Shown here one piece after another: positions 15,767 to 39,540 of a stretch of DNA of 64,000 bases (the stretch's first letter is position 1; every line of letters starts with the position of its first letter). The position numbers and the translations under genes were made by a program. Origin of the DNA: an uncultured Armatimonadetes bacterium (lineage in GTDB: Bacteria > Armatimonadota > Hebobacteria > Hebobacterales > Hebobacteraceae); the NCBI GenBank assembly GCA_963716175.1, contig OY970296.1, positions 896,001 to 960,000 on the forward strand, given 5' to 3'. The notes below the pieces were generated by a model, which was not told the origin of the DNA, made no database searches, and worked only from the letters and a program-made list of their open reading frames with translations.

Positions 15767-16058
15767 CGGCTGCGCAACTCCCTTGGGTACGGGCCTCGCT
15801 GCGGCCTTTTCCTCGCTCTTGTGCTACGCAAGCATACGGTGGCGCAAGCAGCTGGCTGCGATGGCTGTGGAGTATCGGCTCTCGCTGAGGGGTCTGCTCC
15901 CACGCCGGATTCGAGAGCCACTAACGCGCTGGAGCACAGCCCCGGCAGTCATCCGGGCTCAGATGGTTGTGATGATCGTCCTTAGTGGTCTCGTGGCTCT
16001 GTGTTTGTGGCTGATGTTCTTCTCGGATGTCGGGGCCGTCTTGCGAGGCTCGCGCTAG
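15756..16058 (+). CDS. Putative Rhs immunity protein with two hydrophobic helices
   Basis: Overlaps the toxin stop by 11 nt; two hydrophobic segments; resembles the N-half of 18177-18755. Confidence 0.6.
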   Translation: MSGDGCATPLGTGLAAAFSSLLCYASIRWRKQLAAMAVEYRLSLRGLLPRRIREPLTRWSTAPAVIRAQMVVMIVLSGLVALCLWLMFFSDVGAVLRGSR

Positions 16059-16229
16059 GGCATCCCGGACAACCCTGCGGGAAGCGCGAAGCCGGGCGGA
16101 AGCACCTGCCGTCGGTGTGATCTGTGCTACGCGATGGCGGGTTGCCCGGAAGAGCGCGGTAGGCTGTTCGCAAACCGACAGGAACTGCGAGTACACCAAA
16201 CGGGACGCGAAAGCCGGCCAGGGACACCT

Positions 16230-16461
16230 TGTGGTGGTTACTTCGCCGTAGAACCGCCCTAGCCTTGCTCTGAGGGGGTCCTCTGCTGTATCGTGGCCGC
16301 TCATTCTCGCTGGAGGATGCACCCACGTGGAAGCAGCCGGGGCCTCTGTTTGTCTGGTGATGAAGGCAGTGCTGCTGAGTGCCCGCTGGGCGGGACGGAC
16401 ACGACGGCTGGGTCTGGAGCAGGCGGCGAAGGCCGCGGGTGATGGGGCGGAGGTGCAGTCC
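16230..16461 (+). mobile_element. IS-like left-end remnant, copy A
   Basis: Direct repeat of 17845-18077. Begins TGTGGTGGTTAC and encodes ...CLVMKAVLLSARWAGRTRRLGLEQAAK. Confidence 0.55.
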
Positions 16462-16462
16462 A

Positions 16463-16593
16463 ATAGCTTCCTCTACAATGCCCTGGGCCAGCGCATGTGA
16501 GCATGCCTCAACGGGGGCGTCTTACGGTATATCTGCCATGGTGAGCGCGCGCTAGAGCAGACGGACGATGGGGGGAACTTGCTGACCAGTTAC
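16463..16593 (+). pseudogene. Second Rhs core fragment
   Basis: Diverged copy of 14849-14979 (LYNALGQRM*..NGGVLRYICHG.RALEQTDDGGNLLT) with an in-frame TGA. Confidence 0.8.
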
Positions 16594-16744
16594 ATCCCCC
16601 TCTGGTGCACGCTTACGCTCCTGCGGCAGCAGAGCGCTAGGCACGGTAGCGTGAGACACAACTCACGCGCGGGCCAATAGCAGGGCAGCGACGCATGCGA
16701 CAGAGTGCTACGCGTGATGTCTTCCCGCGTAACAGGAGGCGGAC

Positions 16745-17827
16745 ATGGACTGCAGCATCCTTGGGGCGAGACGGAGTGCCCTCGCCGGCCTAGTGTGCCG
16801 GATCGTGTGCGCGGCACTGCTGATGGCGGCGTATATTGGCAGTGGGAAGTCTGCTGGGTCTGGAGACCAACAGCCGGTAACAGAACCCCCTTCCCCGGCC
16901 AGAGCAACCACAGTCTGGCGAACGCCAACTCCACCGACTGACCCGGGGATGAGCGATATCTGGGTCAACCCGACTGATGGCATGGAAATGGTGTACATTC
17001 CACCCGGGGAGTTCCTTCTGGGGTTGAGCAGCAGCCAGATTGATGCCTTGCTCAGGGATGATCCGACGGGCAGTGCTGAAGAACTCAGGGATGCGCAGCC
17101 CCAGTGTGAGGTGCACACAGCGGGTTACTGGATTGGCCGGACAGAAGTGACCAACGGCCAGTACCAGCAGTTTGTCGGTGCTACCGGTCACTCTGTTCCG
17201 AGGCATTGGCAGAACGGCAAGATTCCGGCAGGAACAGAGCGGTTTCCGGTCACCTACGTCAGCCAGGCTGACGCCGAGGCCTATTGCCGGTGGGTAGGCG
17301 GACGATTGCCCACGGAGATCGAATGGGAGAAGGCCGCGCGGGGAACAGATGGACGGCTCTTTCCGTGGGGCAATACTTGGGCTGCTGATCGGTGTCGCAA
17401 CTTCGAGACAACGACCGGGGAGCACATTCCGATGCGCTGGGAGACCTGGCTCCCAGCGCACCAAGCCTGGGAGGCTTCTCACGGGCCGGTCCGCGACGGC
17501 ATAGCGGCCGTCGGCTCTTACCCGGCTGACAAGAGCCCATATGGCTGCATGGACATGGCTGGCAATGTCTCTGAGTGGTGCGCGGGGTGGTATGACGCGA
17601 AGGCGTATCAGCGTTACGCTAGAGGCAATCTCGCCCAAGCCAGGACTGGTAAGCATGTGATGGTGCGTGGTGGCGCCTGGAGCCGGTTCAGCCTTATGTC
17701 CTTCTGCACCGCATACCGCGAACATGGTCCCCCCGATTACTATCGGCTTCACGATACCGGGTTTCGGCATGTTCGAGACGTGGCGGCGGCGTCGCATCCG
17801 GACATGACCCGCGGAAAGAAGCCATAG
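16745..17827 (+). CDS. Formylglycine-generating-enzyme (FGE-sulfatase/SUMF1) family protein, probably exported and non-catalytic
   Basis: MVYIPPGEFLLG, TEVTNGQY, RLPTEIEWEKAARG, DMAGNVSEW, RGGAW, GFR; hydrophobic N-terminus; lacks the paired catalytic cysteines after RGG. Confidence 0.92.
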   Translation: MDCSILGARRSALAGLVCRIVCAALLMAAYIGSGKSAGSGDQQPVTEPPSPARATTVWRTPTPPTDPGMSDIWVNPTDGMEMVYIPPGEFLLGLSSSQIDALLRDDPTGSAEELRDAQPQCEVHTAGYWIGRTEVTNGQYQQFVGATGHSVPRHWQNGKIPAGTERFPVTYVSQADAEAYCRWVGGRLPTEIEWEKAARGTDGRLFPWGNTWAADRCRNFETTTGEHIPMRWETWLPAHQAWEASHGPVRDGIAAVGSYPADKSPYGCMDMAGNVSEWCAGWYDAKAYQRYARGNLAQARTGKHVMVRGGAWSRFSLMSFCTAYREHGPPDYYRLHDTGFRHVRDVAAASHPDMTRGKKP

Positions 17828-17844
17828 CTGCGTTTCGTGCCTGC

Positions 17845-18077
17845 TGTAGCGGTTACTCCCCCGTGGAACCGCCATAGCCTTGCCTTGACCAGCTTTCCCG
17901 GTCTATCGTGGGCAACGCCATCTTGCTGGGGGATGAACCCACGTGGAAGGAGCTGGGACCTGGATCTGCTTGGTAATGAAGGCGGTGCTGCTCAGTGCCC
18001 GATGGGCGGGGCGAAGGAGACGGCTGGGCCTGGAGCAGGAGGCGAAGACTTCGGGTGATGGGGCGCAGGTGCAGGCC
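17845..18077 (+). mobile_element. IS-like left-end remnant, copy B
   Basis: Begins TGTAGCGGTTAC, aligns over ~230 bp with 16230-16461 and breaks off at the same point. Confidence 0.55.
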
Positions 18078-18080
18078 GAG

Positions 18081-18152
18081 AACGGCACCAAGTTCTCGGA
18101 GATAGGGATAGTCTCGCCGGGTTTCTCTGGCGTGAAGTACCATGTCTGGTGA
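18081..18152 (+). pseudogene. Remnant C-terminus of a second Rhs toxin tip
   Basis: GTKFSEIGIVSPGFSGVKYHVW* aligns without gaps to SKPFYEFGLSTPGAFAGYYYVR* (7/22 identical, both ending at a stop). Confidence 0.55.
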
Positions 18153-18176
18153 CCCGAGTTACAGATTGCGACAGGG

Positions 18177-18755
18177 GTGCCGTGCATGTATGCCATGACG
18201 ACGGGGTTAGCCTCTCTCCTCTGTCTGGCCTCGGGCGTCCTGGTCCTTCGATACAGACGCCCGCTGGCCCTCTATCTGGTAGAAGCTTACCGGGATCGTC
18301 GCCAGTCTCTGGGAAAAGCCGGGTGGATCCTTATAGGCGGTTGGATGACCTCAGAGGCGTTCGTGATGTTCGAGGTAATCACCGGAGGCATCCTATGTCT
18401 CGTGGTGGGCGGAATGCTTGCGGCTGAGGCCGTATCCGAGGCCATGGCTTCGCCTCAGTGGCGACCCATCGTAGGGGTACATGCTGGTGAGCCCGGTATC
18501 TCCGCGAGACGTTTCTGGAACATAGCGATGTGCGTTGCGTTCTGGGCACTGGCAGCGTGGACGGCCCGCAGCCATGGTCCGACTGTGCGTCGTCTGAGCC
18601 GGTTCCTTGCCTCGCTTGCGCGCGCGAGTGAGAAGACCAGAGGCATTTGCAGCGACCAAGGCAAACTCGACCTGCTTTCGCAGAGATGCGTTCAGGCAGC
18701 AGTCGCACTGCAGCTGATCCTCGGGGCTGCTTTCCTTGTCATGGCCTTCAGGTGA
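18177..18755 (+). CDS. Putative orphan immunity membrane protein (about 4 TM)
   Basis: Four hydrophobic segments; RYRRPLALYLVEAYR resembles RWRKQLAAMAVEYR of 15756-16058; follows the toxin remnant. Confidence 0.55.
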   Translation: MPCMYAMTTGLASLLCLASGVLVLRYRRPLALYLVEAYRDRRQSLGKAGWILIGGWMTSEAFVMFEVITGGILCLVVGGMLAAEAVSEAMASPQWRPIVGVHAGEPGISARRFWNIAMCVAFWALAAWTARSHGPTVRRLSRFLASLARASEKTRGICSDQGKLDLLSQRCVQAAVALQLILGAAFLVMAFR

Positions 18756-18960
18756 TGTGGCAAACGGCGATGGGACAGCTCTGGATGGCTTCCCAGCCTG
18801 CGTCCAGGGCGGTGCCTGCTTTGTGGATTCAGGGCGACCAGCGGGCAGGCTGTAGCGTTCGGCGCCTTCTTCGGTTACACTGCCGGCATCGATATTGGGA
18901 TTGCCGCGTGCCCAGCCGCATTCTGGCGGGATCGGCGCGTCATATGCTGGCCTCCCCATG

Positions 18961-18989
18961 TTGACTTCCTCAGGGTGAGAGGCTACCGT
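18961..18989 (+). promoter_or_regulatory. Putative sigma70 promoter giving a leaderless mRNA
   Basis: TTGACT-17 nt-TACCGT, with ATG 18996 six nt after the -10 and no Shine-Dalgarno. Confidence 0.4.
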
Positions 18990-18995
18990 AATCAC

Positions 18996-21899
18996 ATGAA
19001 GCGTAGTCTGCGCGCCGCGCTGCTGCTCTCTGTCTTGGTGCTGGCCGGGTGCGCGCGGCCCGCCAACAGGGAGCAGGCCAAGGCCCTGGCGAGCTGGCTG
19101 GGATCACAGTCGTATTCCACCTGGAGCACCTTCTACTCCCGCGACCGCACCCCTCATCAGCCGGCCAGCCCCGACGGCCTCACCCTGGGAAGTCCGAACG
19201 TGTTCGCCGCCGTCGGCTGCAATCCGAAAGACCTCATGTCCCTCGACGTGCTGTGGGGCGATCGGCGCACCGTGCGGCCTCTGGCCAAGCCCATGACGGT
19301 GGCCGTGAAGGAGGGAGATCGCGAGCAGCCCGTCGCCGACTTTGCCGAGCAGACGCTGCGCCGCCTTCGGCATACCTCCATCGCGGTGTCACAGGCCGAA
19401 GACCAGGGGCTGCGCGTCACCTGTGTGTCCTTCGCGCCCAGGCCGTCGGAGGACAGTTTCCTGGCGCGATGGTTCCTGGTAGAGAACACCGGCCATGCGC
19501 CGCGCCGGCCCAGCCTGAAGCTCAAGCTGGGCGCAGCCGGGGAGTGGAGGCGCCAAGAGGCAGGAGTATGGGTCAAGCAGAGCCTGGCCCTCGTCTCCGA
19601 CACCAGGTTGCTCTCCTCCGGCGACGACCTGGAGGCAGTGATGGGGCGCCTGCGGCCGGGCGAGAGAGCCGCGGCCGCACTGCTCCTGGTCGCCGCAAAG
19701 GAGACCTCGCGCCTGACCCAGCAGGTGGCCCGGGCCAAGACCGAACTCACCCGCCTGCTGCCTCTGCTGGAGGAGACCAGGTCCGACTGGGAAGCCTGGT
19801 GCGCCAAGACGCCCCTGAACACTGGTGACGAGCGGACAGACGACCTGCTGGACTCGCTGCTCTGCCTGGTGCGCAGCCATGTGGGGCCGGAGGCCATCCA
19901 CACCGGGTCCCTCCGCTACCCGCACAACCGCGCCTGGGTGCGGGACAGCTACTGGGTCCAGCGCGCGCTCTGGGAGCTGGGCCGCAACGATGAGGCGCGG
20001 CTAAGCCTGGATTTCTTCCATCGCGCCTGGCGCACCTCAGGCCTCGCCTCCTACTACGAGATTCCGAGCGGGCGCTCTACTGCCTACGGCTACGGCGGGG
20101 TCGAGCTGCCCCATTACTTCGTGCTCATGGTGCGGGACGCGGAGGAGTTGGGCGGGGCGGAGGGGTTAGCCTACTGGGATATGGTGCAGGGGTGCCTGGA
20201 CAAGGCGGAGGTCCCAGCCAGTGGTCTCCAGCCCATGAACGGCGACGAGACCTGGCTGCTGGCGGCGCCGGTGCGGGAGCTGGACGATCTGCTCGATAAC
20301 TCCTGGCTCTTGATCGCCTCCGCGGAGTATGGCGCCAGGCTGGCGGAACGCGCCGGAGACCCAGCGCGCGCCGCCCGCTACGGGGCCATGGCCTATCGGG
20401 CGCGGCTCGCCCTCACCAGGTTCCAGCCCGGGACCGGTGAGCCGGCCTGGTATGGCATCGGGCTCGGAGGCGATGGTTCGCTCGACTTCTCCCTCTGCCC
20501 CGGCGTGTACGCCCGCGGCGTGGTGCTCGATGTGCTCCCCCCCAGTGATTCCTACTTGCAGGCCGGGCTGATCGCTAGCTGGCAGCGGCTCCAATACGAC
20601 CGCGGCCTGCGGGCCCATTCCCGCAGCGCCACCATTGACGGCGGAACCCCCGGGTATGTGCTCTGGGCCGCGGCCCGCATGGAGTTGCCCCTGGACCGCG
20701 ACCTGCTCGCTCGCCTGCCCAGGTTCTGCTCCGCCACGGGAAATGTGTGGGAGTTCCACGACCTCTACGACCCGGCCTGGGGTGGCGAGAAACGCCGGCT
20801 CTGGGATTCCGCCGTGGTGCTGATGGGGATGGCGCACTCACTCTTCGACCTGAGGCGGGAGGCCGGAAGACTTGATGTCTTTCCCAGGCCTGTCGCGCAG
20901 CCCCAGCCCGAGGAAGCGGCGCCATCCGTGTTCGACGCCAAAGCCGCGGAGGCGCTGCTCGCGAGCGCGGGGCCCGCGCTCATCCTGCATGATCACTCTC
21001 CCGACCACGCGGCCCGGGTAGCGCGAGCGCTGCTCCGCCAGAGGAACAAGCAGTACGCCATTGGGGCCTACGCAGGCGAGCCGCCCAGTGATCACTCGGC
21101 GCTGATCATCTCGCCCAATCTCCCGCCCGCGGGATGGACCGCGGCTGCGGGCTACTGGGTGCGCAGCTGGGAGGGGCCGCCTCAACTCTGGGTTCGCAAC
21201 GGCGGGGATGTCTACCTGGACACCGATCCCCTGCTCTTCGATCTGCTCTCTTACCTCCCCCCACAGCGGGACAAGCCGCTCCCGTTCCCAGACGCCAACT
21301 TCGATCTCGTGGCGCGATACGGCGAAGCGCCCTCCGGGGAGGCCGAGGTCACGGCCATCTCCACATCGCAGAGCGCCTCCGGTCACCTCAACCTGGCCGG
21401 CGACCGGCTCTCGCTCAAGCCGGCGGACACGGCCTTCGACGTGCGCGTGGAGTCGGCGCCAGGCAACCTGCTCAAGCTCACCGTGATTGCCCCCGCGGCG
21501 CGCGCCGAGGCGGCCGAGATCACGGTCACGCTGCCAGAGGGGTGGTGGCTGGTCTTCGCCCGCGACATGACCGGCAAGTGGGACCACGTGAACGACCCGG
21601 TGGCCGAGTATCGCCTGCCCGGCGGCGAGATCAAGCTGACCTACCACTTCCGCCCCAGCGCCGACTCCCTCAGCCTCACCTTCGACCTGGCCAGGCTGAA
21701 GACTGTAGGGCGGGTATCCGCTGAAGCTTCGGCGAAGGCGGATGCCCGCCGGCCGTATCCGCACCAGACACGCAGCGCGAGGAGCAGCTACATGGCCGAG
21801 CGGCGGGCATGCTCTTCGATTCCGCTCAGGGTAAACTCCGACATGCCCGCCCTACAAGAACGGCCCGTGGGGTGCAGCCGCGCCTGCCCTTACGGGTAA
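18996..21899 (+). CDS. Large lipoprotein with a GH15-like (alpha/alpha)6 glycosidase-type domain
   Basis: Lipobox LAGC after a signal peptide; YPHNRAWVRDSYW resembles the GH15/GH63-type WxRD motif. The last ~65 codons run through a REP pair and may be artefactual. Confidence 0.6.
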   Translation: MKRSLRAALLLSVLVLAGCARPANREQAKALASWLGSQSYSTWSTFYSRDRTPHQPASPDGLTLGSPNVFAAVGCNPKDLMSLDVLWGDRRTVRPLAKPMTVAVKEGDREQPVADFAEQTLRRLRHTSIAVSQAEDQGLRVTCVSFAPRPSEDSFLARWFLVENTGHAPRRPSLKLKLGAAGEWRRQEAGVWVKQSLALVSDTRLLSSGDDLEAVMGRLRPGERAAAALLLVAAKETSRLTQQVARAKTELTRLLPLLEETRSDWEAWCAKTPLNTGDERTDDLLDSLLCLVRSHVGPEAIHTGSLRYPHNRAWVRDSYWVQRALWELGRNDEARLSLDFFHRAWRTSGLASYYEIPSGRSTAYGYGGVELPHYFVLMVRDAEELGGAEGLAYWDMVQGCLDKAEVPASGLQPMNGDETWLLAAPVRELDDLLDNSWLLIASAEYGARLAERAGDPARAARYGAMAYRARLALTRFQPGTGEPAWYGIGLGGDGSLDFSLCPGVYARGVVLDVLPPSDSYLQAGLIASWQRLQYDRGLRAHSRSATIDGGTPGYVLWAAARMELPLDRDLLARLPRFCSATGNVWEFHDLYDPAWGGEKRRLWDSAVVLMGMAHSLFDLRREAGRLDVFPRPVAQPQPEEAAPSVFDAKAAEALLASAGPALILHDHSPDHAARVARALLRQRNKQYAIGAYAGEPPSDHSALIISPNLPPAGWTAAAGYWVRSWEGPPQLWVRNGGDVYLDTDPLLFDLLSYLPPQRDKPLPFPDANFDLVARYGEAPSGEAEVTAISTSQSASGHLNLAGDRLSLKPADTAFDVRVESAPGNLLKLTVIAPAARAEAAEITVTLPEGWWLVFARDMTGKWDHVNDPVAEYRLPGGEIKLTYHFRPSADSLSLTFDLARLKTVGRVSAEASAKADARRPYPHQTRSARSSYMAERRACSSIPLRVNSDMPALQERPVGCSRACPYG
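21705..21855. repeat. Inverted pair of GTAG REP palindromes (REPIN-like) with nested hairpin repeats
   Basis: GTAGGGCGGGTATCCG...CGGATGCCCGCC and CGGCGGGCATG...CATGCCCGCCCTAC. Confidence 0.7.
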
Positions 21900-22951
21900 A
21901 CCCCCCACTCGCGCACCAGCTCCACCACTCTCGCGTATCTCTGGAAGCTCACCTGCGTCGGGATGGAGTGATCGGAATGGAAGACGTAGCCCCCTGGATT
22001 CGACATGCCAATCGCTAGCTTGGACCGCACCTCCTGCTCCATCTCCGCCTCGTCGGCCCAGAAGGTGCGCACATCCACCCCGCCCATGAAGCAGAGGTCT
22101 CGCCCGTACTCGCGCACCAGCTCCGTCAGGTCCATCCCCGCCTTCACCTCCAGCGGCTGTAGACAGTCGAACCCGGCCTCGATCAACATGGGCACGATGC
22201 CACTCACTCGGCCGCAGGAATGCAGCACCACCGGCCACCCCTGCTGGTGGAAGAAAGCGTTGAGCTGCTTGTGATAGGGGAAGAGCTGCTCTCGATAGGC
22301 GCGCGGTGAGAACAGCAGGGCATTGCGGTAGCCGAGGTCGTCCCACAGCCAGGCGCCGTCGAAATCGAGCCCCTGCTCCAGGTAGAGCTTCGTGAGCCCG
22401 ATGATCATCTCGGCGTCATAGGCGTACATCTCCTTCACCCACTCCGGCTCCTCGGCAATCGCCATCAGCAGCGCCTCCGGCCCCATCTTGCGCCAGGTGG
22501 CTTCGTACCCGGGGACGGCACCCAGGCAGATGTACTTGCCCTGCCGCCGGCAGTGAGCGTGGCTCTCCTTCACCTCCTTCCAGTCTATCCGGCTGGGGTC
22601 CGGCTTCAGGCGGCCCTTCAGCGCGTCCCAGTCGGCGCGGGTCTTGATCGGGAAATCCAGCAGCTCGGGGGTGGAGCGATGGTCCAGCCAGTTCCTCGTC
22701 AGGTCCCCCCATTGGTCACGCTCGATCACGTACTCGTCAGTGCGCTCGATCACCTCTGTCGGCAAGCCGAAGGAGTTATCAACTCCGAGGACACAGATTT
22801 CCAGTCCGAAGTAATCGTCGGGGGAGGCCCCGGCCGGCAGGCCCTCCCGATGCCAGCGATTTGCCGTCGCCTCCCAGAACGACTCGTGGATCGGCACCCG
22901 GTCCGGCTGCTGATGATGCAAGGCCTTGGCGACGCGCTCGCGTGAGGTCAT
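21890..22951 (-). CDS. Uroporphyrinogen decarboxylase/MtaA-like family protein
   Basis: MTSRERVAKALHHQQPDRVP, DDLGYR, HSCG, QPLEVKAGMD, FMGGVD, GGYVFHSDHSIP. Confidence 0.9.
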   Translation of the reverse strand: MTSRERVAKALHHQQPDRVPIHESFWEATANRWHREGLPAGASPDDYFGLEICVLGVDNSFGLPTEVIERTDEYVIERDQWGDLTRNWLDHRSTPELLDFPIKTRADWDALKGRLKPDPSRIDWKEVKESHAHCRRQGKYICLGAVPGYEATWRKMGPEALLMAIAEEPEWVKEMYAYDAEMIIGLTKLYLEQGLDFDGAWLWDDLGYRNALLFSPRAYREQLFPYHKQLNAFFHQQGWPVVLHSCGRVSGIVPMLIEAGFDCLQPLEVKAGMDLTELVREYGRDLCFMGGVDVRTFWADEAEMEQEVRSKLAIGMSNPGGYVFHSDHSIPTQVSFQRYARVVELVREWGVYP

Positions 22952-22992
22952 CCCAATCCTCCGTCTCGTGGGGTAGGTTTCCGGGCTATCGC

Positions 22993-23809
22993 CTACTCTA
23001 TCCCCAGCCAGCGCAGCGCGTTCGTGCTCAGCACCCGCTCGATCGTCTCCGATGACCGCGCTGGCCTCCCGCAGCATGCTGCGCTCCTCCTGCAAGCTCT
23101 CTCGCAGCCCCTCCCCATTGTCCGTGGCCACGCAGTCGCTGCCATAGACCAACTGCTTGTCGCCGAGATAGGCGAAGGCCTTGCGCAGGGCGTCCACCTT
23201 CCAGATGCGGGGCGCGCCGCTGGTGGTGTCGGCGAAGCTCTGCCACTCCGACTTGTAGCCGCTCGCCGCTCGAAACTTCCCGCACACCGCGAAGCACTCA
23301 TCCGTCCAGGGCCAGCTCATGTGCGCCATGGCGAATCGGATCTTGGGATAGTGCAGCATGATCTCGAAGAAGGCCGGCCGGCAGTGCTGGGAGGTGTCGC
23401 TGGTCCCCCACAGGATTCCGGTGTGAAAGAGCATGGGTTTCTCGTACTCCTGGATCTTGGCGTAGCAGGCCTGCGCCCGCTCGTCCGCCGGATACCAGTG
23501 GTTGGGGATCATCTTCACCCCGCGCAGTTTCTTCTTGTCCAGGGCGTAGTCCACCGCCTCCACCGCGTCCGGCAGCGTCGGCTCGATCCAGGCGAAGCCG
23601 ATCAGCCGCTCGGGATCGGGCTTGACCAGGGCGGCGATCTGGTCCAGCACCTTCTTGTGGGCGTTCTTCGCCGGCTTCCCGGCCTGCTGGGCCCGATGCG
23701 GCGGGACCGAGAACAGCACTACCCGGTCCAGCCCCGCCTTGTCCAAGGCCTTCAGGATCTTGTCGCCATCCTCGGTCCCTCTGGTGTGCACGTGCACGTC
23801 AATCGCCAT
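22993..23809 (-). CDS. Amidohydrolase_2 family protein (frameshift near 23056)
   Basis: IDVHVH, LFHTG, MAHM, YGSD; RBS GAGGAG. The natural end ETIERVLSTNALRWLGIE* lies in another frame; one extra base fuses it to the URO-D gene in the ORF track. Confidence 0.8.
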
Positions 23810-23819
23810 TCTCTCCTCC

Positions 23820-24263
23820 TCACTTGGTCTCGATCTCCAGCTCTCCTGCGGCTGCCTGCTCATAGCGCGCCCACCGCATCGCCAGATGCAGCCCGTGGAT
23901 GAGGCAGAGCAGGTAGAACAAAGCGCTCCAGGCGGCCTGCCCCAGCAAGGTGAGCACCAGCCCATACACCGCGAAGCTTGCGCCGAAGGCTGCGGTGACG
24001 ATGGCGGCGGTGGCGGCTCCGGGCCCGTTCCTGCCTCGGACCGCCTGCGTCAACCCGAGCCGTTCCAGGAAGAGCGAGATCCCGTACTCGCTGATCGCGA
24101 GCAGCAGCAGCACCCGGGGGAGCAGGCGCCCCACCTCCGGCGGCCCGATCGGCTGCACCGGAATCAGCCGGCCCACCAGAGGGAATAGCACCAGGCAAGA
24201 GGTGTAGATCAGAATGACGATCCAGCGCACCCGATCCAGCCCGCCTGCGGACTCTTGCTCCAT
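23820..24263 (-). CDS. Hypothetical membrane protein (about 4 TM)
   Basis: Hydrophobic helices, host-like codon usage, tight spacing to the amidohydrolase RBS. Confidence 0.7.
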   Translation of the reverse strand: MEQESAGGLDRVRWIVILIYTSCLVLFPLVGRLIPVQPIGPPEVGRLLPRVLLLLAISEYGISLFLERLGLTQAVRGRNGPGAATAAIVTAAFGASFAVYGLVLTLLGQAAWSALFYLLCLIHGLHLAMRWARYEQAAAGELEIETK

Positions 24264-24288
24264 GCAGACCCTCTCGCCCGAAACGCTG

Positions 24289-24384
24289 CTAGCCGAGTTT
24301 CTGCAACTCAAGCAGTAGCCCTTCCACCAACACGAATCTCCCCAGCGGCCGCACCTCCACCCCGGCCGGGAAGCTGCGCTGGAA
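24289..24384 (-). repeat. Duplicated 3' end of the ATPase gene 27108-27764
   Basis: Encodes FQRSFPAGVEVRPLGRFVLVEGLLLELQKLG*, versus FQRSFPAGVEVLPLGRFVLVEGLRTELGKLGR* at 27108-27206. Confidence 0.9.
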
Positions 24385-24454
24385 CGCGAAACCCACTCAT
24401 CTGCGAGAGATGAACGCAATGGCTACTCCGAGCCAGGGTCCTCAGGGACAGGGT

Positions 24455-26998
24455 CTAAGATGAACCGGGAGCGGCAAGCTGCTCGTCCAATCTCCGCAGA
24501 CTTCGCTCGATGGCGTGCTTCCGGTACCCAGGCCCCGCCAGAACCAAGGCCCGCTCCATATGGGCCCTGGCCTCCGGGAGCTTCCCGGTGACCCAGAGGG
24601 CCCACGCCAGGCCATGGTCTGCATCCATATCCGTAGGGTCGTCCTTGAGGACAGTACTGAAATAGGAAATCGCGGCTTCGGGCGACTCTCGGAAGAGGTC
24701 CAGGGCTGATTGCAGATGGGGGTAATGGAGCGCTAGGCGCAGTGCCTGATCGGTTCGGCCAGTTCTGCGGAAGGACTGAATGGCGCGTCCCACAGGTCCC
24801 GAAGGATGGTAACGACGCTGAAGGTACCATCGCGCGATGTCGTCGGCCGAGACAGAGGCCAGATCCTTGTCAAAGAGCGCCGTATACGCGGCCTCACACC
24901 GCACGATCCCTAACTCCTCCATACCTTCGATCTCCCTCTTCGCCGTCTCGTAGGACGGAGCCAGCCGAACCAGGGCGCTGTAATCGAAGCGCTTGGGCTC
25001 AAGCCCCATGGAACGCATCAGACGTAGCGTAGCATCTACTGCACCATAGTTGTCTGCTTTCATGGCCGCGAAGGTGTAGGAGCCAGCATCTGGCTCAGTG
25101 CCAGCGGCGCGCATTTCGCCAATGACAGCCAGTGCCGTCTTGTAGTCTGGGGCGCTACGTATCAGGCTGTTGTACATGGCAAGGGTGGGTTCCAGACCGG
25201 CGCCGCGGGCTTCATCCAGCAGCATCGCGCCTGTCGGATAATCTGGAGTCCGTTTCATGAGGAACTCATATTCGCCGGTGTCCAGTTTGAGGCCCCTGGC
25301 GCGCAACCAGCGCGCGGCTTTCACTGCTTCATCGGGGTCGCGGGCTGTCCAGAGGAGCTCTTTGCAAACGGCAACTGGGAGTCCCACGCCGCGGCTCAGG
25401 AGGTCTTCAGCGAGATGCTGGCCTGCCTCTAGGTTGGGCGCGTGACGTAGCACCGCCCGAGAGCAAGCTGAGCTGGGTGCAACGCCCTTGTCGCACATCG
25501 TCCGCAGCACAGCTGCGGCCGCCTCGTAGTCATCCGCCCTTTCAACCACAGCCTCATAGATAGCCCTATCGGGCTCGACCCCTTGCGCCTGCATATCCTG
25601 CAGCAAGGCTACGGCAGCCGTGTAGTCAGGAGCCTTGCCGGATAGCAGCCTGTACGTGTAGCGGTCCAAGCGTAGTCCGTGGGCCTTCATACTCGTTGCC
25701 AGAGATTGGGCAGAAGCATAGTCGGGCGCCCTCGCGATGAGCGTACGGTAGGTGTTCGCATCCGGCCTCACCCCCTCGCGGTGCATCTCCTCCAGCACCT
25801 TCAGCCCAGTGCCGAAGAGCGAGATGCGCCGGAGCACAAGGTTGCACGCGTCGACCTCTGCCTGTTCCCCGGACGGGCGCACTATCTCCAGGAGGTTGGC
25901 TAGTCTCTCGTACCGAACTGCGGTTCGACAAAGCAGATTGACAGTAACTCGGTCCGGGCTTACGCCTTGAGCGCGCATCTCGCCGAGCAATGCCCCTTCC
26001 GCTATCGTGTCTCCGGCCCTCGCAATCAGCACATTGTAGGTACCGACGTTGCGGCCAATCCCCGCCTTGCTCATCTCCGCGAGCAACTTCGTCCTCTCGT
26101 CCGAACCCGGAGCTTTCGCGATGAGGGCGTTGTAGGTAGTGACGTCAGATGGGATGCCTGCGTCGTTCATCGTGCGCTGGATGCGGCGCGCAGTGTCATA
26201 ATCGATCTGGCTTGCGAGCAGCCGAGACCATCGCTCTGTCAGGCTGGCAGCGTCAAGAACTGGACCTCTTGCCCCAGCCCTAAGACTATCAGATGCCCGT
26301 TCGGCGGCGCGCGAGGCCTCCTCTGTCTGGCCCAAAGCAGCCAATGTGTTTACGAAATGCTCTGGCGAATCGGAACCGACACTGGCTTCCGCCTTCAGAG
26401 GGCCGAGCACGTGGAGGGGAAACTCCTCCTCCCCTTTCGCCTCAGCCCTGCCACTCGCCGTGTGCGGCGTCTTCTTTGCACTGACGTGGAAATCGCGGAA
26501 CACGAACTCCCGAATGGGCTCCCCGATGAGTATCTCATCCGGGCAGCATGACTTCGACGCTCGCACTGCTCGACGAGCGCTGTCGCCCACATAGTCAGGC
26601 CTGTCGTCGGGCAAAGTGACCGGTATGTCTCTGCCCGAGCATATTGCAAGCCGGAGCGGGGGTATCTTAGACTCGGACAGTCTTGTCTCACGGGCCATCT
26701 CCTTCCGGAACTTTCCCTGCATGATTAAGGCGAGGCAGCAAAGGACCGGGATGTCGGTCTGCTCTTCCGTCATGACAAGCCAGCCATCTCCCGTGAATTT
26801 CAAGAGAGCCTGGCTCAGCCCTAGCCTCTCCAGATAAGGCCTGATCTGTTTGACTAGCGCTGCATTGAAACGGTCAAGCTGGAGTGTAGTCAGTTCTAGG
26901 CCAGACGCGGTCGACCCCACGAGGTCTATGGCCAGGCAATACACCCCGCGGGGCGCTTCAGGCTCTTGCGACAGCTCTTCGCCGTCAGAATGGGCCAT
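24455..26998 (-). CDS. Class III nucleotide cyclase domain + 14 PPR-like repeats + TPR-like C-terminus
   Basis: IDLVGST, KFTGDGW, LRLAICSG, DYVGDSARRAVR, EILIGE; 32-aa repeats such as VTTYNALIAKAPGSDERTKLLAEMSKAGIGRN; RBS AGGGTGG. Confidence 0.85.
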   Translation of the reverse strand: MAHSDGEELSQEPEAPRGVYCLAIDLVGSTASGLELTTLQLDRFNAALVKQIRPYLERLGLSQALLKFTGDGWLVMTEEQTDIPVLCCLALIMQGKFRKEMARETRLSESKIPPLRLAICSGRDIPVTLPDDRPDYVGDSARRAVRASKSCCPDEILIGEPIREFVFRDFHVSAKKTPHTASGRAEAKGEEEFPLHVLGPLKAEASVGSDSPEHFVNTLAALGQTEEASRAAERASDSLRAGARGPVLDAASLTERWSRLLASQIDYDTARRIQRTMNDAGIPSDVTTYNALIAKAPGSDERTKLLAEMSKAGIGRNVGTYNVLIARAGDTIAEGALLGEMRAQGVSPDRVTVNLLCRTAVRYERLANLLEIVRPSGEQAEVDACNLVLRRISLFGTGLKVLEEMHREGVRPDANTYRTLIARAPDYASAQSLATSMKAHGLRLDRYTYRLLSGKAPDYTAAVALLQDMQAQGVEPDRAIYEAVVERADDYEAAAAVLRTMCDKGVAPSSACSRAVLRHAPNLEAGQHLAEDLLSRGVGLPVAVCKELLWTARDPDEAVKAARWLRARGLKLDTGEYEFLMKRTPDYPTGAMLLDEARGAGLEPTLAMYNSLIRSAPDYKTALAVIGEMRAAGTEPDAGSYTFAAMKADNYGAVDATLRLMRSMGLEPKRFDYSALVRLAPSYETAKREIEGMEELGIVRCEAAYTALFDKDLASVSADDIARWYLQRRYHPSGPVGRAIQSFRRTGRTDQALRLALHYPHLQSALDLFRESPEAAISYFSTVLKDDPTDMDADHGLAWALWVTGKLPEARAHMERALVLAGPGYRKHAIERSLRRLDEQLAAPGSS

Positions 26999-27107
26999 CC
27001 CACCTTACCTATGCCGTCTGAGGGCCGTTGCACGCACGGAGAGGGTCACGGCGAAGCGAGCATCCTGAGCGGACGGTCTGTCCCGCCCCCAGGCAGCATC
27101 CTCAGCG

Positions 27108-27764
27108 TTATCTACCCAGTTTCCCCAGCTCGGTCCTGAGCCCTTCCACCAACACGAATCTGCCCAGCGGAAGCACCTCCACCCCGGCCGGGAAGCTGCG
27201 CTGGAAGAGCCGATTCTCGCACATGCCGCCGGAGAGGTACAAGCAGGAGCGCGAGCCCGCGAAGCGGTGAGCATTGAGCGCAATGCCCCGGGCGAAGCGC
27301 GCCACCGCCTCTGCCTCCGAAACTCCTTGCGCCACCAGCTCGAAGAGCTGCTCCATCCCCAGCACGCCGCAGGTGACCGGCACCGATTTCTCGGCGGGTT
27401 CGATGGCCCCATAGTCAAGGTCATAGTAGCTTCCGAGCAGCTCCAACGTGAACCCCGTGAGCGCGCCGCAAGTGCTGGTCCAATCCATCGCCACCAGCTC
27501 GCCGTGGCGCAGGTGGATGTACTTCACATCCCGGGAGCCCACGTCGAGCAGCAGGAACTCCGGCTCCGCGATCAGCCGTTGCCCGCCCTGGGCGAGCGCG
27601 ATCAGCTCGTTGATATGGCGCGGCGCGCGGCGGCGGGCATTGTGGCCGGTCGCCAGATCGGCGGTGATCTCGCGCGCCTCCCTGGTGCGCAGCACCCGCC
27701 GCTCCCCGGTCTCGGTGTCAAGCAGCTTAGTCCAGGTAGTGCCGAAGTCACCCAGCACAGCCAT
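27108..27764 (-). CDS. ASKHA ATPase, BadF/BcrA/HgdC (dehydratase activator)-like
   Basis: GDFGTTWTK, ATGH, NELIALAQG, LDVGSRDVK, CGALTG, TCGVLG, LSGG. Confidence 0.8.
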   Translation of the reverse strand: MAVLGDFGTTWTKLLDTETGERRVLRTREAREITADLATGHNARRRAPRHINELIALAQGGQRLIAEPEFLLLDVGSRDVKYIHLRHGELVAMDWTSTCGALTGFTLELLGSYYDLDYGAIEPAEKSVPVTCGVLGMEQLFELVAQGVSEAEAVARFARGIALNAHRFAGSRSCLYLSGGMCENRLFQRSFPAGVEVLPLGRFVLVEGLRTELGKLGR

Positions 27765-27765
27765 C

Positions 27766-28500
27766 TCAGTCCCAAACCTTGTGGAACCGCAGGAAGGCCT
27801 CGATCTTCGCCTTCACCGGCCCCGACAGCACGCCGTCTGCGTCCACGTAGAGGCCATCATACTTCCGCGCCAGATGCCGGGCGGTGATGTTCTTGGGGCA
27901 GAAGGTCTGAGCGAAGAAGACCGTGGGCCGGCCCGGCGGCACATAGGCCTCCAGCTCCCACGCCGCCGGAGTCCGGTTCTCCAGGCAGCGCGTCCATCCC
28001 AGGATCTGAGAGCCATCCGGGAACAGCTCGTAGATGGAGAAATGGGCCGCCGGCACCCCCCAGATCGCCGCCCGCGGCGCGGGCTCGGCCCGCAGGTCGA
28101 GGGGCTGCGGCCGCACCAGCGCATCCAGGATCAGCTCCATCTTGCGCATCACGGGGAGATCGCAATCGCAGACTGGCGTGCCCGCGCCCCGCCGATTCTC
28201 GTTGTGGGTCCGCACTACCGGGATGCTGAGCCGGTCGGCCAGCAGGTCGGCCAGACCCCGGGCCGAGTCGCACTTGCCGTAGCCCTCGTCAATCACGATC
28301 TCGTCCAGATCGAGGGAGAGCGCGTTATCGAGCACGCGCCTGATGATGCGACACGTAGTGCGAGGCAGCAGCGCCTCGCTGTGAGGAGCCACCCCCGCGA
28401 TGAGATTGTCCAGATCAACCAGCACCTGCTCCCGGCGGGGCGCCAGCGCTTCCTCGGGCGGACAGCCCACGAAGCCAATCCTGCGCCTGCTCTCACTCAT
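27766..28500 (-). CDS. Conserved hypothetical Cys-containing protein, possibly a short 2-hydroxyacyl-CoA dehydratase-like Fe-S subunit
   Basis: IGFVGCPP, TTCRII, GYGKCDS, WTRCLEN, QTFCPKN; directly upstream of the activator-like ATPase. Confidence 0.6.
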   Translation of the reverse strand: MSESRRRIGFVGCPPEEALAPRREQVLVDLDNLIAGVAPHSEALLPRTTCRIIRRVLDNALSLDLDEIVIDEGYGKCDSARGLADLLADRLSIPVVRTHNENRRGAGTPVCDCDLPVMRKMELILDALVRPQPLDLRAEPAPRAAIWGVPAAHFSIYELFPDGSQILGWTRCLENRTPAAWELEAYVPPGRPTVFFAQTFCPKNITARHLARKYDGLYVDADGVLSGPVKAKIEAFLRFHKVWD

Positions 28501-29795: not shown

Positions 29796-31115
29796 ATGAC
29801 CCAAGCTCCGTCTGAGCAGTACCTCCGCGAGGAGCTGCGCGCGCTCTCGGAAGAGGGCTTCGATATCTCCCAGCCCACTCGCCAGTTGAGCGAGCTTGCC
29901 GGCCGCGCGGATCGCGAGGCAGATCAGAGGAGGCGGGAAATCGAGGTCAGCCTGCCTGGTTTGCCTCTCCGGCCCGACATCACCTACCACGAGCCATCGG
30001 ACCTGGAGGGCATTCGCGCTGCCCGCCCCGAGGGCCCGCCGAAGCTCTCCCACAAGATCAGCAAGGCCGCGCTGGCCGACAAGACTCGCGGCGCCTGGCT
30101 GGGGCGGGCCGCCGGCTGTCTGCTCGGGAAGCCGTGCGAAGGCTGGGATCGGCAGACCATCGAGCGCGCCCTTCGCTCCCTGGGGGAGTGGCCGCTCCGC
30201 GATTACTGGCCGGTGGCTGACCCGCCGCCAGGCGGCATCACCTACCCCTCACCCGCCGATCCCTCCCTCCGCCAGAACATCACCCGCATGACCCGGGATG
30301 ACGACATGGACTACCCCATCCTGGGTCTGCACCTCTTCGAGGCTTACGGGCCTGCCTTCAACACTGGGGACGTCGCGAGGGAGTGGCTCAATCGTCTGCC
30401 CTATGGCTGCGTCTACACCGCCGAGCACATCGCCTACCGCAACCTGGTGAACGGGATGGCGCCCCCGGAGACCGCGCGCTACCGCAACCCTTACCGGGAA
30501 TGGATCGGCGCTCAGATCAGGGCCGACATCTGGGGTTGGGCCGCGCCCGGCCAGCCAGAGCTGGCGGCCGACTTCGCCTGGCGCGACGCCGCGCTCTCCC
30601 ACACCAGGAACGGCATCTACGGCGAGATGTTCTTCGCCGCTCTGCTGGCCGCGGCCTTCGTCGAGCCGGACGTGCACCAGCTCATCGAGATCGGGCTCTC
30701 CGAGATCCCGCGGAACTGTCGCTTCCGAGAGGCCGTCCTAGACACTGTGGACTGGTGCGCGCACGACCCCGATTGGGAGGCCACCTGGGGCCGGATCAAC
30801 GACAAGTACGGCCACTACCACGGCGTCCACACCATCAACAATGCCGCGGTGGTGCTGATGGCCCTGCTTCACAGCCGCGGTGACTTCGGCCGCGCCATCG
30901 CCATCGCGGTCATGGGCGGGTGGGACACCGACTGCAATGGCGCCACCGCCGGCTCGGTGATGGGCACCATCCTCGGCGCCAAGGCCTTGCCAGCCCAGTG
31001 GATCACTCCGCTGCACGACCGCATCTCCAGCATCGTGATCGGCTTCACCGAGATGCGGATCTCGGAGCTGGCCCGCCGCACCACCGCGGTGCAGCACCGC
31101 GCTCTGGCCGCGTAG
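29796..31115 (+). CDS. ADP-ribosylglycohydrolase family protein
   Basis: GAWLGRAAGCLLG, RDDDMDY, REWIGAQIRAD, SHTRNGIYG, GWDTDCNGATAG. Confidence 0.92.
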   Translation: MTQAPSEQYLREELRALSEEGFDISQPTRQLSELAGRADREADQRRREIEVSLPGLPLRPDITYHEPSDLEGIRAARPEGPPKLSHKISKAALADKTRGAWLGRAAGCLLGKPCEGWDRQTIERALRSLGEWPLRDYWPVADPPPGGITYPSPADPSLRQNITRMTRDDDMDYPILGLHLFEAYGPAFNTGDVAREWLNRLPYGCVYTAEHIAYRNLVNGMAPPETARYRNPYREWIGAQIRADIWGWAAPGQPELAADFAWRDAALSHTRNGIYGEMFFAALLAAAFVEPDVHQLIEIGLSEIPRNCRFREAVLDTVDWCAHDPDWEATWGRINDKYGHYHGVHTINNAAVVLMALLHSRGDFGRAIAIAVMGGWDTDCNGATAGSVMGTILGAKALPAQWITPLHDRISSIVIGFTEMRISELARRTTAVQHRALAA

Positions 31116-36976: not shown

Positions 36977-37273
36977 AACGAGCTGCCTCCTGCCAATCCG
37001 ACTGCCGTTACCGCATCCCGGCGGTTCTAGCGGTCGTCGGTCGCTTTTCTCCCCCTTTCTCCGCCGTGCGCCCGCCGGGCCGGCCGATGATCCAGCGTAT
37101 AGTACCCCAGGTCCCGAGGGTGGGAGGCGGGCGCACGGCGGGGAAAGGGCCTCGCAGCGGGGACAGGAGACAGGCTCCTGCCCAAAGAACGGGAACCCCA
37201 CGTAGGTAGAAGAATGAGAGGAGAAGCTCGTGTGCGCAGTGGCCTAGTGCAGACTGAACTGAGGGGAGGCGGA

Positions 37274-38398
37274 ATGCGAGTTCACGCTCAAGCGCTTCTC
37301 GGGCTGGCGCTGCTGCTTCTGGGTGCAGCAGCAGCGCGCGGGCAGCAGAGCGAATACCGGTCGGGGGCAACGCAATCCACCAATGAAGGCATAGCCACTC
37401 CGGTAAGGTATGATTGCCTTGAGTTGCTGAGCGTGACCGCGCAGCTCATGACGCCGGGACTGCCACGTGACAAGTCTCTGCTCGCAGGCGGGGACGAAAG
37501 CGCCTTGGAGGTTGTCCGAGGCTTGGCGCGCCGCTACACAGTGGTCCTTGTCAAGCTTGAAGCGAAGGGGGTCCCTGCCACCTTTCTGATGTCCAGGTGG
37601 CAGCTGGTGGCCGGGAAGAACACGCTTGACCAAGTTACCCGGATTGACGACCTAGGCGTGATGCCTCCCCTGAGCAAGAACTTGCAGGCAGGCACTGAGC
37701 TGCTTGGATTCCTATGCTATCCCAAAGCGGAATTGGGCAATGTCGACGTCGTGCTGGTCGCGCCCGAGGGCACTATACGTGAGGAGAGCTCGGGCCTCTC
37801 GGCAGTCCATTTCGTGCTCACAGGACCCAGGCCCCGGGCGCTAACTCCGCTCGATATAAGGCGCGAGCAACGGGAGTCCGATACACCATTGTTCCGTCCC
37901 GGCGAAACTGTCACGCCCGCCAAGCGCGGCAGCGGGGTTGTGAAGACACGGGTTACAGTGGTGGGACAGCCGCTCAGCGGAGTGTGGATGCTCCTCGCCC
38001 CCTTTGACTATCGCGACGACATGGACCGTGCGGAGGAGTTCTACCGAAGCATGGGCCTGTCCCTTCAGGAGGTTATGGACTCGGCCCTTGCAGGTTTCTC
38101 CGGCGCTTATCACCGGAAGGCGACGGATGCCAAGGCCGCCGGAGCTTTGTCGGAATTCCGCCTGGACCGAGCTGGGGAAGCGAACGTCGAAATGGGCGCC
38201 GGGCAGTACTGGCTTTCGGTTGCTCTGGAGCACCGCAAACACTCCCTGGAGAGTCCGTCGGGTGCACACCGTCCGAGCCACTACACCGCGCGCGATGGGA
38301 AGACCTACTGTTGGAACGTCCGTGTCGTGATCGAAGCGGGTAAGATGACGAGTGTCGTGCTGGATGAGGCGAATGCCATGCTTGTTCCAGGGAAATGA
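37274..38398 (+). CDS. Hypothetical exported protein
   Basis: RBS GGAGG, signal peptide MRVHAQALLGLALLLLGAAAARG, atypical codon usage, no recognised motif. Confidence 0.7.
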   Translation: MRVHAQALLGLALLLLGAAAARGQQSEYRSGATQSTNEGIATPVRYDCLELLSVTAQLMTPGLPRDKSLLAGGDESALEVVRGLARRYTVVLVKLEAKGVPATFLMSRWQLVAGKNTLDQVTRIDDLGVMPPLSKNLQAGTELLGFLCYPKAELGNVDVVLVAPEGTIREESSGLSAVHFVLTGPRPRALTPLDIRREQRESDTPLFRPGETVTPAKRGSGVVKTRVTVVGQPLSGVWMLLAPFDYRDDMDRAEEFYRSMGLSLQEVMDSALAGFSGAYHRKATDAKAAGALSEFRLDRAGEANVEMGAGQYWLSVALEHRKHSLESPSGAHRPSHYTARDGKTYCWNVRVVIEAGKMTSVVLDEANAMLVPGK

Positions 38399-38588
38399 AC
38401 AAGAGTCACGGCCCTAGCTTACCGTCGTGCCCATTCCGCAGGAAGCCTGCCCCTGCCATTCCTTTTGAAGGCTGGCCTAGCCTCGTCACGCTCTGCGCTG
38501 GGCATTGAGACGGGCCGGAAGGCTCGTCTGCACCGAGCTTGCGCAAGCTGGGAGATCGTCCGATCCGAGTAGATGGGAGGTCAGGCAC

Positions 38589-39347
38589 ATGTGCCAATTG
38601 CTGGGCATCTCCTCTAACCGGGAAGTGGATCTTGCCTTTTCCCTTCGCGAATGGCGCCACCGCGGGTGTAGCAATCCGGATGGGTACGGATTCGCCTATT
38701 GGGACACGGCTCAGCTCTACATCATCAAGCGTGCTCGCGACCTTTGGGGAGAGAATGCCGAGCGCCTAGACGAAGTCAGGTCAAAACGTAGCCGCACGTT
38801 CCTATGCCATGTGAGGCTCGGATCAGTAGGTGAGCAGGACGGTAGGAATACGCATCCGTTCAAGCGCGTGCTCGATGGACGTCACTTCGCGTTCGCCCAC
38901 AATGGTACTCTCTGCGGGTACCGAGAGCAGTTGCAGCTGAGGCAACTGTCTCCCGAAGGCGATACGGATTCCGAATACGCTTTTCTGTGGCTGCTCGAAC
39001 AGCTATCGGGCGTAGCTGCCGAAAGCTTTTCTGTGCAGCTTCAGTACCTTGCGGACAAGGTCCAGCGATTCGGGAGGTTCAACTTCTTGCTGAGCGACGG
39101 CACAACACTATGGGCCTATGCCGACAATGCCTTGCACTTCATAGAGCGGAGGCCTCCGTACGGAGGCGAGTTGGTGCGCCTACTGCAGGAAGGGTACACT
39201 GTTGCTCTCTCGGACGTAAAGAAGTCCGATGAAAGGGCCATTCTGGTGGCGACCTGCCCGCTCACTGATGAGTCAGGTTGGGAGGGCCTAGGAGTTCGCG
39301 AACTGCTGGTGATCCGCGATGGACAGGTCTGCGAAAGGCTTCGCTAG
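38589..39347 (+). CDS. Class II glutamine amidotransferase (YafJ/EgtC-like)
   Basis: N-terminal MCQLLG (Cys2 nucleophile), NPDGYG, HVR, NTHPF, FAHNG, GDTDSE, NFLLSDG. Confidence 0.93.
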   Translation: MCQLLGISSNREVDLAFSLREWRHRGCSNPDGYGFAYWDTAQLYIIKRARDLWGENAERLDEVRSKRSRTFLCHVRLGSVGEQDGRNTHPFKRVLDGRHFAFAHNGTLCGYREQLQLRQLSPEGDTDSEYAFLWLLEQLSGVAAESFSVQLQYLADKVQRFGRFNFLLSDGTTLWAYADNALHFIERRPPYGGELVRLLQEGYTVALSDVKKSDERAILVATCPLTDESGWEGLGVRELLVIRDGQVCERLR

Positions 39348-39396
39348 CAACCACTTGGGCAGGAGACACGCTCCTGCCCCACGAACTTGCCAATTC

Positions 39397-39515: not shown

Positions 39516-39540
39516 AGAGAACGGCCAGCGGCAGGAGAAT

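Follow-up and report, generated by a model that had tools for sequence, protein, structure and literature searches.

Class III nucleotidyl cyclases are enzymes in which the roles of two metal-binding Asp residues, an adenine-specifying Lys/Asp pair, a ribose-orienting Asn and a transition-state Arg are established, and mycobacterial proteins of the AC-ATPase-TPR-LuxR type (the Rv0386 group) are class III cyclases fused to presumed helical-repeat sensors. Cas10 of type III CRISPR systems is a palm-type cyclase switched on by specific RNA recognition, and pentatricopeptide repeat (PPR) proteins are the classic RNA readers of eukaryotic organelles, with few and mostly uncharacterised examples from bacteria. 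Here we analysed a 64,000-nucleotide stretch of DNA from an uncultured Armatimonadetes bacterium (contig OY970296.1; the whole stretch is referred to as the window) and describe a gene that joins a cyclase domain to a PPR array. The reading frame (24455-26998, minus strand) is open for 847 codons, and its 847-aa product (P0001) consists of a cyclase domain, a linker, 14 PPR-like repeats and a tetratricopeptide repeat (TPR)-like C-terminal module. An earlier reading of the letters alone (the original prediction) had given the frame exactly as we find it, and the motifs that it quoted are all present: IDLVGST at aa 24-30, KFTGDG at aa 67-72, DYVGDSARRAVR at aa 135-146 and HGLAWALWVTGKLPEARAHMERAL at aa 795-818. 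Cyclases with helical-repeat sensors are already known; what is new is the PPR-type, code-bearing array and the cyclase subfamily to which it is attached, in which an active-site Asn has become Arg. As the best explanation of the whole we tentatively favour a stand-alone cytosolic sensor-cyclase, horizontally acquired and with a probable single-stranded RNA (ssRNA) input, to which we give a probability of roughly 45%.

The cyclase part occupies aa 1-210 (26369-26998, minus strand). This region alone drew no NCBIfam match, and single-sequence phmmer against the Protein Data Bank (PDB) returned chance matches only. An alignment of 36 cyclase-domain relatives was used for a PDB profile search and for AlphaFold2 (AF2) modelling. 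The profile matched the class III adenylyl cyclases 5o5k (E = 1.9e-8), 4p2f (2.3e-7) and Ma1120 (4.6e-7), and 22 class III cyclase sequences in total at E ≤ 1. The AF2 model of the domain reached a pLDDT of 93 and a pTM of 0.89, and every PDB match listed for it by Foldseek was a class III cyclase, at a probability of 1.00 and a TM-score of ~0.7. The fold is the palm-like beta-alpha-beta-beta-alpha-beta fold of the described enzymes (Rv1625c/Cya, Ma1120, CyaC and CyaB; 5o5k, 4p2f, 4wp8, 1wc0 and 3r5g). Residues 1-210 are a real but divergent class III cyclase homology domain, and the class III assignment of the original prediction, which Pfam misses, is borne out by both profile and fold. A two-copy complex prediction from the same alignment scored 0.41 against a mark of 0.42, and was counted neither for nor against dimerisation.

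The catalytic residues of the described enzymes are largely retained. Aligned to 5o5k, D25 and D71 fall on the metal Asp residues, K67 and D135 on the Lys/Asp pair that specifies adenine, and R146 on the transition-state Arg. Counted over 195 near-full-length cyclase domains, these residues are kept in 184 (D25), 192 (D71), 188 (K67), 177 (D135, with Glu in a further 12) and 186 (R146). Retention of the metal Asp, Lys/Asp and Arg residues in 177-192 of the 195 domains implies strong purifying selection on the catalytic set, and argues that P0001 is an active enzyme: a predicted class III nucleotidyl cyclase that is probably catalytically competent. Going by the Lys/Asp pair, ATP is its most likely substrate. 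Both metal Asp residues and the ATP-type pair had been read from the single protein in the original prediction, as had the replacement of the Asn of NxAxR by Arg, which also proves correct. The Asn half of the transition-state Asn...Arg pair is absent, and R142 stands at the ribose-orienting site, aligned with the Asn of GDAVNVASR in 5o5k (a G-D-x-V-N-x-A-S-R motif). Arg occupies this site in 193 of the 195 domains, and Asn in one. The family also differs from the described cyclases in lying below Pfam detection and in carrying GDGW, D124 and CCLA motifs of its own, with W73 and D124 invariant; a canonical-looking relative (P0238) links it to ordinary cyclases. With an invariant Arg where Asn is expected, and with the family-specific W73 and D124, ribose handling or the product may be altered. 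Even on a conservative reading, this is an unannotated cyclase subfamily with a systematic active-site Asn-to-Arg change.

The repeat array lies at aa 254-701 (24896-26239, minus strand) and contains 14 contiguous units in a strict 32-aa register with zero indels, followed by a partial cap. Pfam scored it above the cut-offs of PPR_2 (E = 9e-28; 96.6 bits, cut-off 30), PPR_3 (4.7e-27; 94.3 bits, cut-off 25), PPR_long (41.1 bits, cut-off 27) and PPR_1 (32.8 bits, cut-off 23.8), as did NCBIfam for its PPR model TIGR00756 (7.2e-15; 54.1 bits, cut-off 20). AF2 shows one helix pair per unit, with helix A of ~10 aa and helix B of ~13 aa. With the full-length model, the top 26 PDB matches listed by Foldseek were all PPR proteins, and cyclases ranked lower; the best match was PPR10 with psaJ RNA (4m59, 3.4e-13), and further matches included PPR subunits of the plastid RNA polymerase complex and RNA-bound designer PPRs. 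The fourteen PPR repeats counted in the original prediction are right in number and, with Pfam scores and top structural matches both pointing to PPR, are not generic TPR or HEAT repeats. Their period is 32 aa family-wide rather than the canonical 35, with three residues fewer in helix A and its turn, a length similar to that of the short S-type repeats of plant PLS proteins. The family shares its helix-pair solenoid and Pfam families with organellar P-class and designer PPRs (PPR10, 4m59; dPPR, 5i9f, 5i9g and 5i9h; cPPR, 5orm and 4wsl), as well as N/S/T at position 5, D/N/S at the last position and a Lys before the turn. It differs from them in its 32-aa period, in being prokaryotic, in that RNA binding is predicted, and in its fusion to a type of enzyme that is not known from PPR proteins of eukaryotes.

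The positions that carry the PPR code were examined in 1050 ungapped repeats extracted from 179 family proteins. Position 5 is N in 61%, S in 16% and T in 6% of these repeats, and the last position is D in 43%, N in 37% and S in 7%. The canonical pairs ND, NN, SN, SD, NS, TD and TN, which by the code of plant and designer PPRs stand for U, C/U, A, G, C, G and A, respectively, account for 792 of the 1050 (75%), and the Lys before the helix A-B turn is kept. Within-protein variability was measured in 29 of the 75 proteins with at least six repeats, in which the repeats are on average at least 60% identical. Across these 29 related, non-independent proteins, deviation from a protein's own consensus was highest at the last position (0.404) and then at position 5 (0.325), with positions 9, 26 and 2 behind them, a ranking in which one of the two code positions falls in the inter-repeat loop. 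The last position and position 5 were among the five most variable in 17 and 15 of the 29 proteins, respectively, against 4.5 expected. Code strings are pyrimidine-rich and strongly divergent even among fairly close relatives, and a subgroup of ~561-aa proteins retains a single string (UYUGx). From these repeat sequences, ssRNA is the best-supported and most likely ligand class of the family, weakened for P0001 itself by a code that has decayed. The acidity of the repeat region (family median isoelectric point 5.09) was considered as an argument against RNA binding and dropped, because the canonical designer PPR consensus is also net acidic.

Between the cyclase and the repeats lies a conserved helical linker of just 43 aa (aa 211-253; 26240-26368, minus strand), with AF2 helices at 212-221 and 225-243. 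No P-loop NTPase (NB-ARC, NACHT or AAA) was found between cyclase and repeats, and Pfam at E ≤ 1 gave PPR/TPR-type families only. The repeats are followed by a family-specific C-terminal module (aa 702-847; 24458-24895, minus strand) made of a partial capping repeat, a W..YHP motif and TPR-like helices. Its alignment has a mean column identity of 55%, with W27, H34, L60 and P63 invariant. The original prediction had called this tail TPR-like: it is conserved and TPR-like in character, but Pfam TPR matches are sub-threshold (aa 770-824; TPR_16, 4.3e-5; TPR_19, 8.3e-5). P0001 shares with the Rv0386 group an N-terminal cyclase and, behind it, an alpha-solenoid that presumably acts as a sensor, and departs from that group in lacking a STAND/AAA ATPase and a helix-turn-helix domain, in a solenoid of PPR rather than TPR type, and in a plan of cyclase, PPR and cap only. 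A transmembrane segment is absent from P0001 (maximum Kyte-Doolittle 19-mer, 1.28), as had been claimed.

This architecture is fixed, rare and patchily distributed across phyla, including archaea. When 1.84 billion cluster representatives were scanned exhaustively by phmmer with aa 1-210, 156 clusters matched at E ≤ 1e-3, 67 of them at E ≤ 1e-30, and the domain was N-terminal in nearly all matches listed; in a whole-protein search, all 110 of 110 full-length matches carried the cyclase domain. A prokaryotic family of at least 156 clusters keeps the PPR code alphabet and is hard-wired to a cyclase domain invisible to Pfam. Among 185,579 species, each represented by one genome, the family was found at 48 loci, mainly in Armatimonadota, Dehalococcoidia, Planctomycetota and Acidimicrobiia, with a few in archaea. 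Only 2 of 14 genomes of the window's own taxonomic family have a strong match, on other contigs and without the window's neighbouring genes. Ten distant relatives of the cyclase domain comprise seven PPR fusions, two FG-GAP fusions (one also with LRR) and one protein without a recognised family. The two FG-GAP proteins, P0200 (1371 aa; divergent cyclase domain, FG-GAP and LRR) and P0201 (1071 aa; FG-GAP), have no PPR, which indicates that the cyclase domain can pair with other repeat-type sensors.

Exchange at the other end of the protein, with TIR, SIR2 or a nuclease replacing the N-terminal domain, had been raised in the original prediction and is not borne out: none was found in a word-seeded search with a C-terminal profile, whose 24 strong matches (E ≤ 3e-51) all keep the cyclase domain. 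Of these, 14 were confirmed directly and the others are members of the earlier set; the search scored only the 8000 candidates sharing most words, so that a rare swapped architecture could escape it. Weaker matches were generic TPR proteins without a cyclase domain, and a single C-terminal query sequence, having few shared words, retrieved only one relative. In records of the Joint Genome Institute (JGI), 'class 3 adenylate cyclase' is the name of a few members and 'TPR repeat protein' that of others, so the cyclase part had been annotated automatically before. The full-text literature, with thin coverage of subscription journals, gave no description of a cyclase-PPR fusion in prokaryotes, in keeping with the earlier statement that the architecture appears undescribed.

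The gene is a clean, foreign, horizontally acquired single-gene insert. Its GC content at third codon positions (GC3) is 0.69, against 0.81-0.88 in the genuine neighbouring genes, so the weaker GC3 bias first noticed by eye is real. The gene order URO-D, amidohydrolase, o199, o218, o244, MBL-fold is conserved in five relatives (L066, L067, L068, L070 and L075), in which o218 adjoins o199 (~70 bp apart in L067) and leaves no room for a cyclase-PPR gene. In the window, o199 and o218 (27108-27764, minus strand, 218 aa) are separated by 2.7 kb, with the cyclase-PPR gene as the sole gene between them (inserted segment 24385-27114, minus strand). The segment is flanked by direct repeats. The right copy (27115-27206) is 92 nt long and corresponds to the last ~31 codons of o218; the left copy (24293-24384), 70 nt downstream of the cyclase-PPR gene, is an orphan second o218 3' end with its own stop. 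The copies are 86% identical over 92 nt, with 65 of 68 core bases identical; each has a stop codon, and each matches the 3' end of o218 in relatives. The arrangement has the appearance of an integration into a gene 3' end with target duplication; no integrase or transposase is present in the insert.

Direct repeats also flank the gene in 4 of 29 other loci (L015, L034, L027 and L022). Those of L015 (6897-6979 and 9752-9834) are 83 nt long and 93% identical, and those of L034 lie at 7370-7421 and 10151-10202; in both loci a small open reading frame (ORF) without a Pfam family (187 aa in L015, 100 aa in L034) stands between the upstream repeat and the cyclase-PPR gene. At the left edge of the window's insert, conservation of o199 (23820-24419, minus strand, 199 aa) among relatives starts only at about residue 47-65, and the N-terminal extension of o199 crosses the left repeat copy in another frame; the true start is probably further downstream. 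Eukaryotic contamination, or recent transfer from a eukaryote to a bacterium, was rejected because the genome is a single 4.56-Mb prokaryotic contig, the flanks are syntenic and bacterial, and the relatives are all prokaryotic records of metagenome-assembled genomes. Around the gene, a promoter and terminator scan of 24200-27300 found no promoter-like and one terminator-like site, not above shuffled sequence, and Rfam gave no match in 23500-28000 at E ≤ 0.1. Among public sequencing runs, a search listed none of RNA and five of DNA, from sediment metagenomes and with small word shares (0.07-0.22), which we count as evidence neither of expression nor of habitat.

The gene travels without a recognisable partner. 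An all-against-all blastp comparison of flanking ORFs from the 48 loci and the window revealed no conserved neighbour. Oxidoreductases of the GFO/IDH/MocA type were rejected as a partner because they occur at only five loci, at varying distance and on varying strands, and belong to a ubiquitous family; besides them, only broken-off pieces of the cyclase-PPR gene itself recur in the flanks. Among 135 ORFs within 1.8 kb of the gene at 44 loci, no PADLOC family recurred in more than two and no Pfam family in more than three, and the Pfam tally reads as housekeeping (GidA, MutS, YbeY, acyl-CoA dehydrogenases). The host genome carries a single copy of the gene. PF00211 has no match in it, and that same search also misses the cyclase-PPR protein, which is the sole detectable class III-type cyclase of the host. 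Both PF00211 and the cyclic nucleotide monophosphate (cNMP)-binding family PF00027 are patchy in the taxonomic family, being present in 8 and 7 of 14 other genomes, respectively.

For activity, substrate, ligand and coupling we infer the following scheme. Two cyclase domains would pair head-to-tail to form the active sites, as in other class III enzymes. The solenoid of 14 PPR repeats would serve, with the conserved TPR-like cap, as the input module, and ligand binding along the solenoid would control cyclase pairing or activity. For the family, that ligand would be ssRNA whose bases are read one at a time, under the PPR code mostly as pyrimidine-rich sequence. The output would be a nucleotide product, or the consumption of ATP itself. 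The reader of such a product would not be encoded beside the gene, nor be a canonical cNMP-binding protein in this host.

Several observations weigh against a sensor-cyclase with RNA input. Pfam Guanylate_cyc (PF00211) has no match to aa 1-210 even at E ≤ 10, and the Asn-to-Arg change means that the chemistry or product may differ, or that activity may be low. The full-length AF2 model combines a mean pLDDT of 91.2 with a pTM of 0.55, so that the relative placement of the domains in P0001 is not predicted. The family's variability signal could owe something to duplication of repeat blocks, and its proteins are related rather than independent. P0001 is an outlier in that family: its repeats are only 31% identical to each other, canonical code pairs occur in just 5 of the 14, and seven have R, K or E at position 5. 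Its code is decayed, and its ligand may therefore be less sequence-specific, or not RNA. On the output side, PF00027 has no match in the host genome (completeness estimate 90.85%), which leaves no obvious cAMP reader; other carriers do have cNMP-binding proteins (four of the five genomes tested), and the cyclase is thus not consistently paired with such a reader. Lastly, the STAND defence protein Avs5-3 has a PPR-type C-terminal sensor that is described as a likely binder of a protein ligand (PMC12931631).

The likeliest alternative is that P0001 is a conventional signalling cyclase in which the PPR-like solenoid senses proteins or small ligands, in the manner of TPRs, rather than reading RNA. 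It would then follow the principle of the many class III cyclases that are fused to TPR or other sensor modules. The charged residues at position 5 in half of the P0001 repeats and its five canonical pairs fit such a sensor, as do the TPR-like tail, a 32-aa period unlike that of RNA-binding P-class PPRs, and the housekeeping neighbours. The PPR repeats of the Avs5 sensor have likewise been read as protein binders, although P0001 lacks the SIR2 effector and STAND NTPase of Avs5 (PMC12931631). However, protein sensing finds it hard to explain the family-wide N/S/T and D/N/S alphabets and the peak of variability at the code positions, and the best structural matches are PPRs bound to RNA. We consider this alternative unlikely on balance, with about one chance in four.

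The sensor-cyclase reading also has to be set against a role in immunity, which the original prediction had raised and for which we find neither a PADLOC match, nor a conserved neighbour, nor an effector. Here P0001 would be a single-protein anti-phage system of the abortive-infection type, in which the PPR array detects a phage RNA or protein, whereupon the cyclase either fills the cell with a cyclic nucleotide or exhausts its ATP. Several features fit such a system: patchy occurrence in bacterial phyla and archaea (48 loci among 185,579 species genomes, and a strong match in no more than 2 of 14 genomes of the same taxonomic family), a single-gene insert with atypical GC3 and flanking repeats, and a cyclase domain that two clusters fuse to LRR or FG-GAP arrays instead. 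Fairly close relatives have strikingly different repeat numbers and code strings, and the near-identity of repeats in some members points to rapid turnover of the array. Yet the constant UYUGx string of the ~561-aa subgroup is more in line with a conserved target than with an arms race, the 135 neighbours are housekeeping in character with no PADLOC family matching more than two, and neither an N-terminal exchange for TIR, SIR2 or a nuclease nor a cNMP-binding effector in the host was detected.

PycC of Pycsar is likewise a class III-type cyclase that is mobile and patchy, and the profile has a weak match to the uridylate cyclase 8jsz (E = 0.017). P0001 differs in having no adjacent effector, no cNMP-binding effector in the genome and no PADLOC match, and in a Lys/Asp pair that suggests a purine substrate. 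That the insert holds the cyclase-PPR gene only, with no effector inside it, was already recognised in the original prediction, and the lack of a detectable canonical cAMP receptor in the host speaks against simple cAMP-CRP signalling as well as against an effector of the Pycsar type. We regard an anti-phage role as improbable, slightly more so than protein sensing.

A bolder version of the sensor-cyclase reading goes beyond what we favour. In it, the PPR array would read a specific ssRNA by the two-residue code of plant organelles and switch on the fused cyclase. The protein would then do without a guide what Cas10 does with one, and single-gene cassettes would carry it between bacteria and archaea; the invariant Arg at the Asn site would mark a new product or activation chemistry. 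The likeness to Cas10 is one of functional analogy and not of membership: recognition here would be coded by the PPR protein rather than guided by crRNA, and no CARF or SAVED partner was found adjoining the cyclase-PPR gene. We hold this full version to be a long shot, comparable in standing to the anti-phage role. Were it true that the array reads RNA and gates the cyclase, the family would represent a new class of input for second-messenger signalling and a naturally modular RNA-to-nucleotide switch usable as a programmable biosensor, with implications for how PPR proteins arose.

Least probable, and in our view quite unlikely, is that the cyclase domain is a non-cyclising nucleotide-binding or repurposed palm and the protein mainly an RNA-binding regulator of stabilisation, processing or translation like eukaryotic PPRs, since the Arg for Asn in 193 of 195 domains, the extra invariant W73 and D124, the missing Pfam Guanylate_cyc match and the lack of a detected cNMP-binding domain in the host are outweighed by catalytic residues kept in 177-192 of 195, which is the pattern of an active enzyme and not of a pseudo-enzyme.

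Some features of the surrounding window deserve mention. At 21890-23965 (minus strand), a single 691-aa open frame joins the amidohydrolase and URO-D domains. In the genomes of the same family that were searched, each of these parts has its own, smaller matching stretch, and in most of these genomes the two lie in different open frames; the 691-aa frame is thus either a fused gene or a pair of genes that the ORF caller took for one. The genes at 18975-21899 (plus strand, 974 aa), 27108-27764 (minus strand, 218 aa) and 27766-28500 (minus strand, 244 aa) are high in GC3 and syntenic in relatives, and have no Pfam family at E ≤ 0.001. An ADP-ribosylglycohydrolase gene (29796-31115, plus strand; Pfam 2.2e-54) lies 2.8 kb from the insert, beside the MBL-fold gene; it holds this position in one relative (L066) and not in the others examined, which makes it part of the host context rather than of the insert. 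Finally, the stretches 16000-19000 and 37000-40000 have a GC content of 0.595-0.63, against ~0.67, and include ORFs of low GC3 (16745-17827, 0.67; 37214-38398, 0.68; 38505-39347, 0.66). These two stretches may be other foreign inserts.

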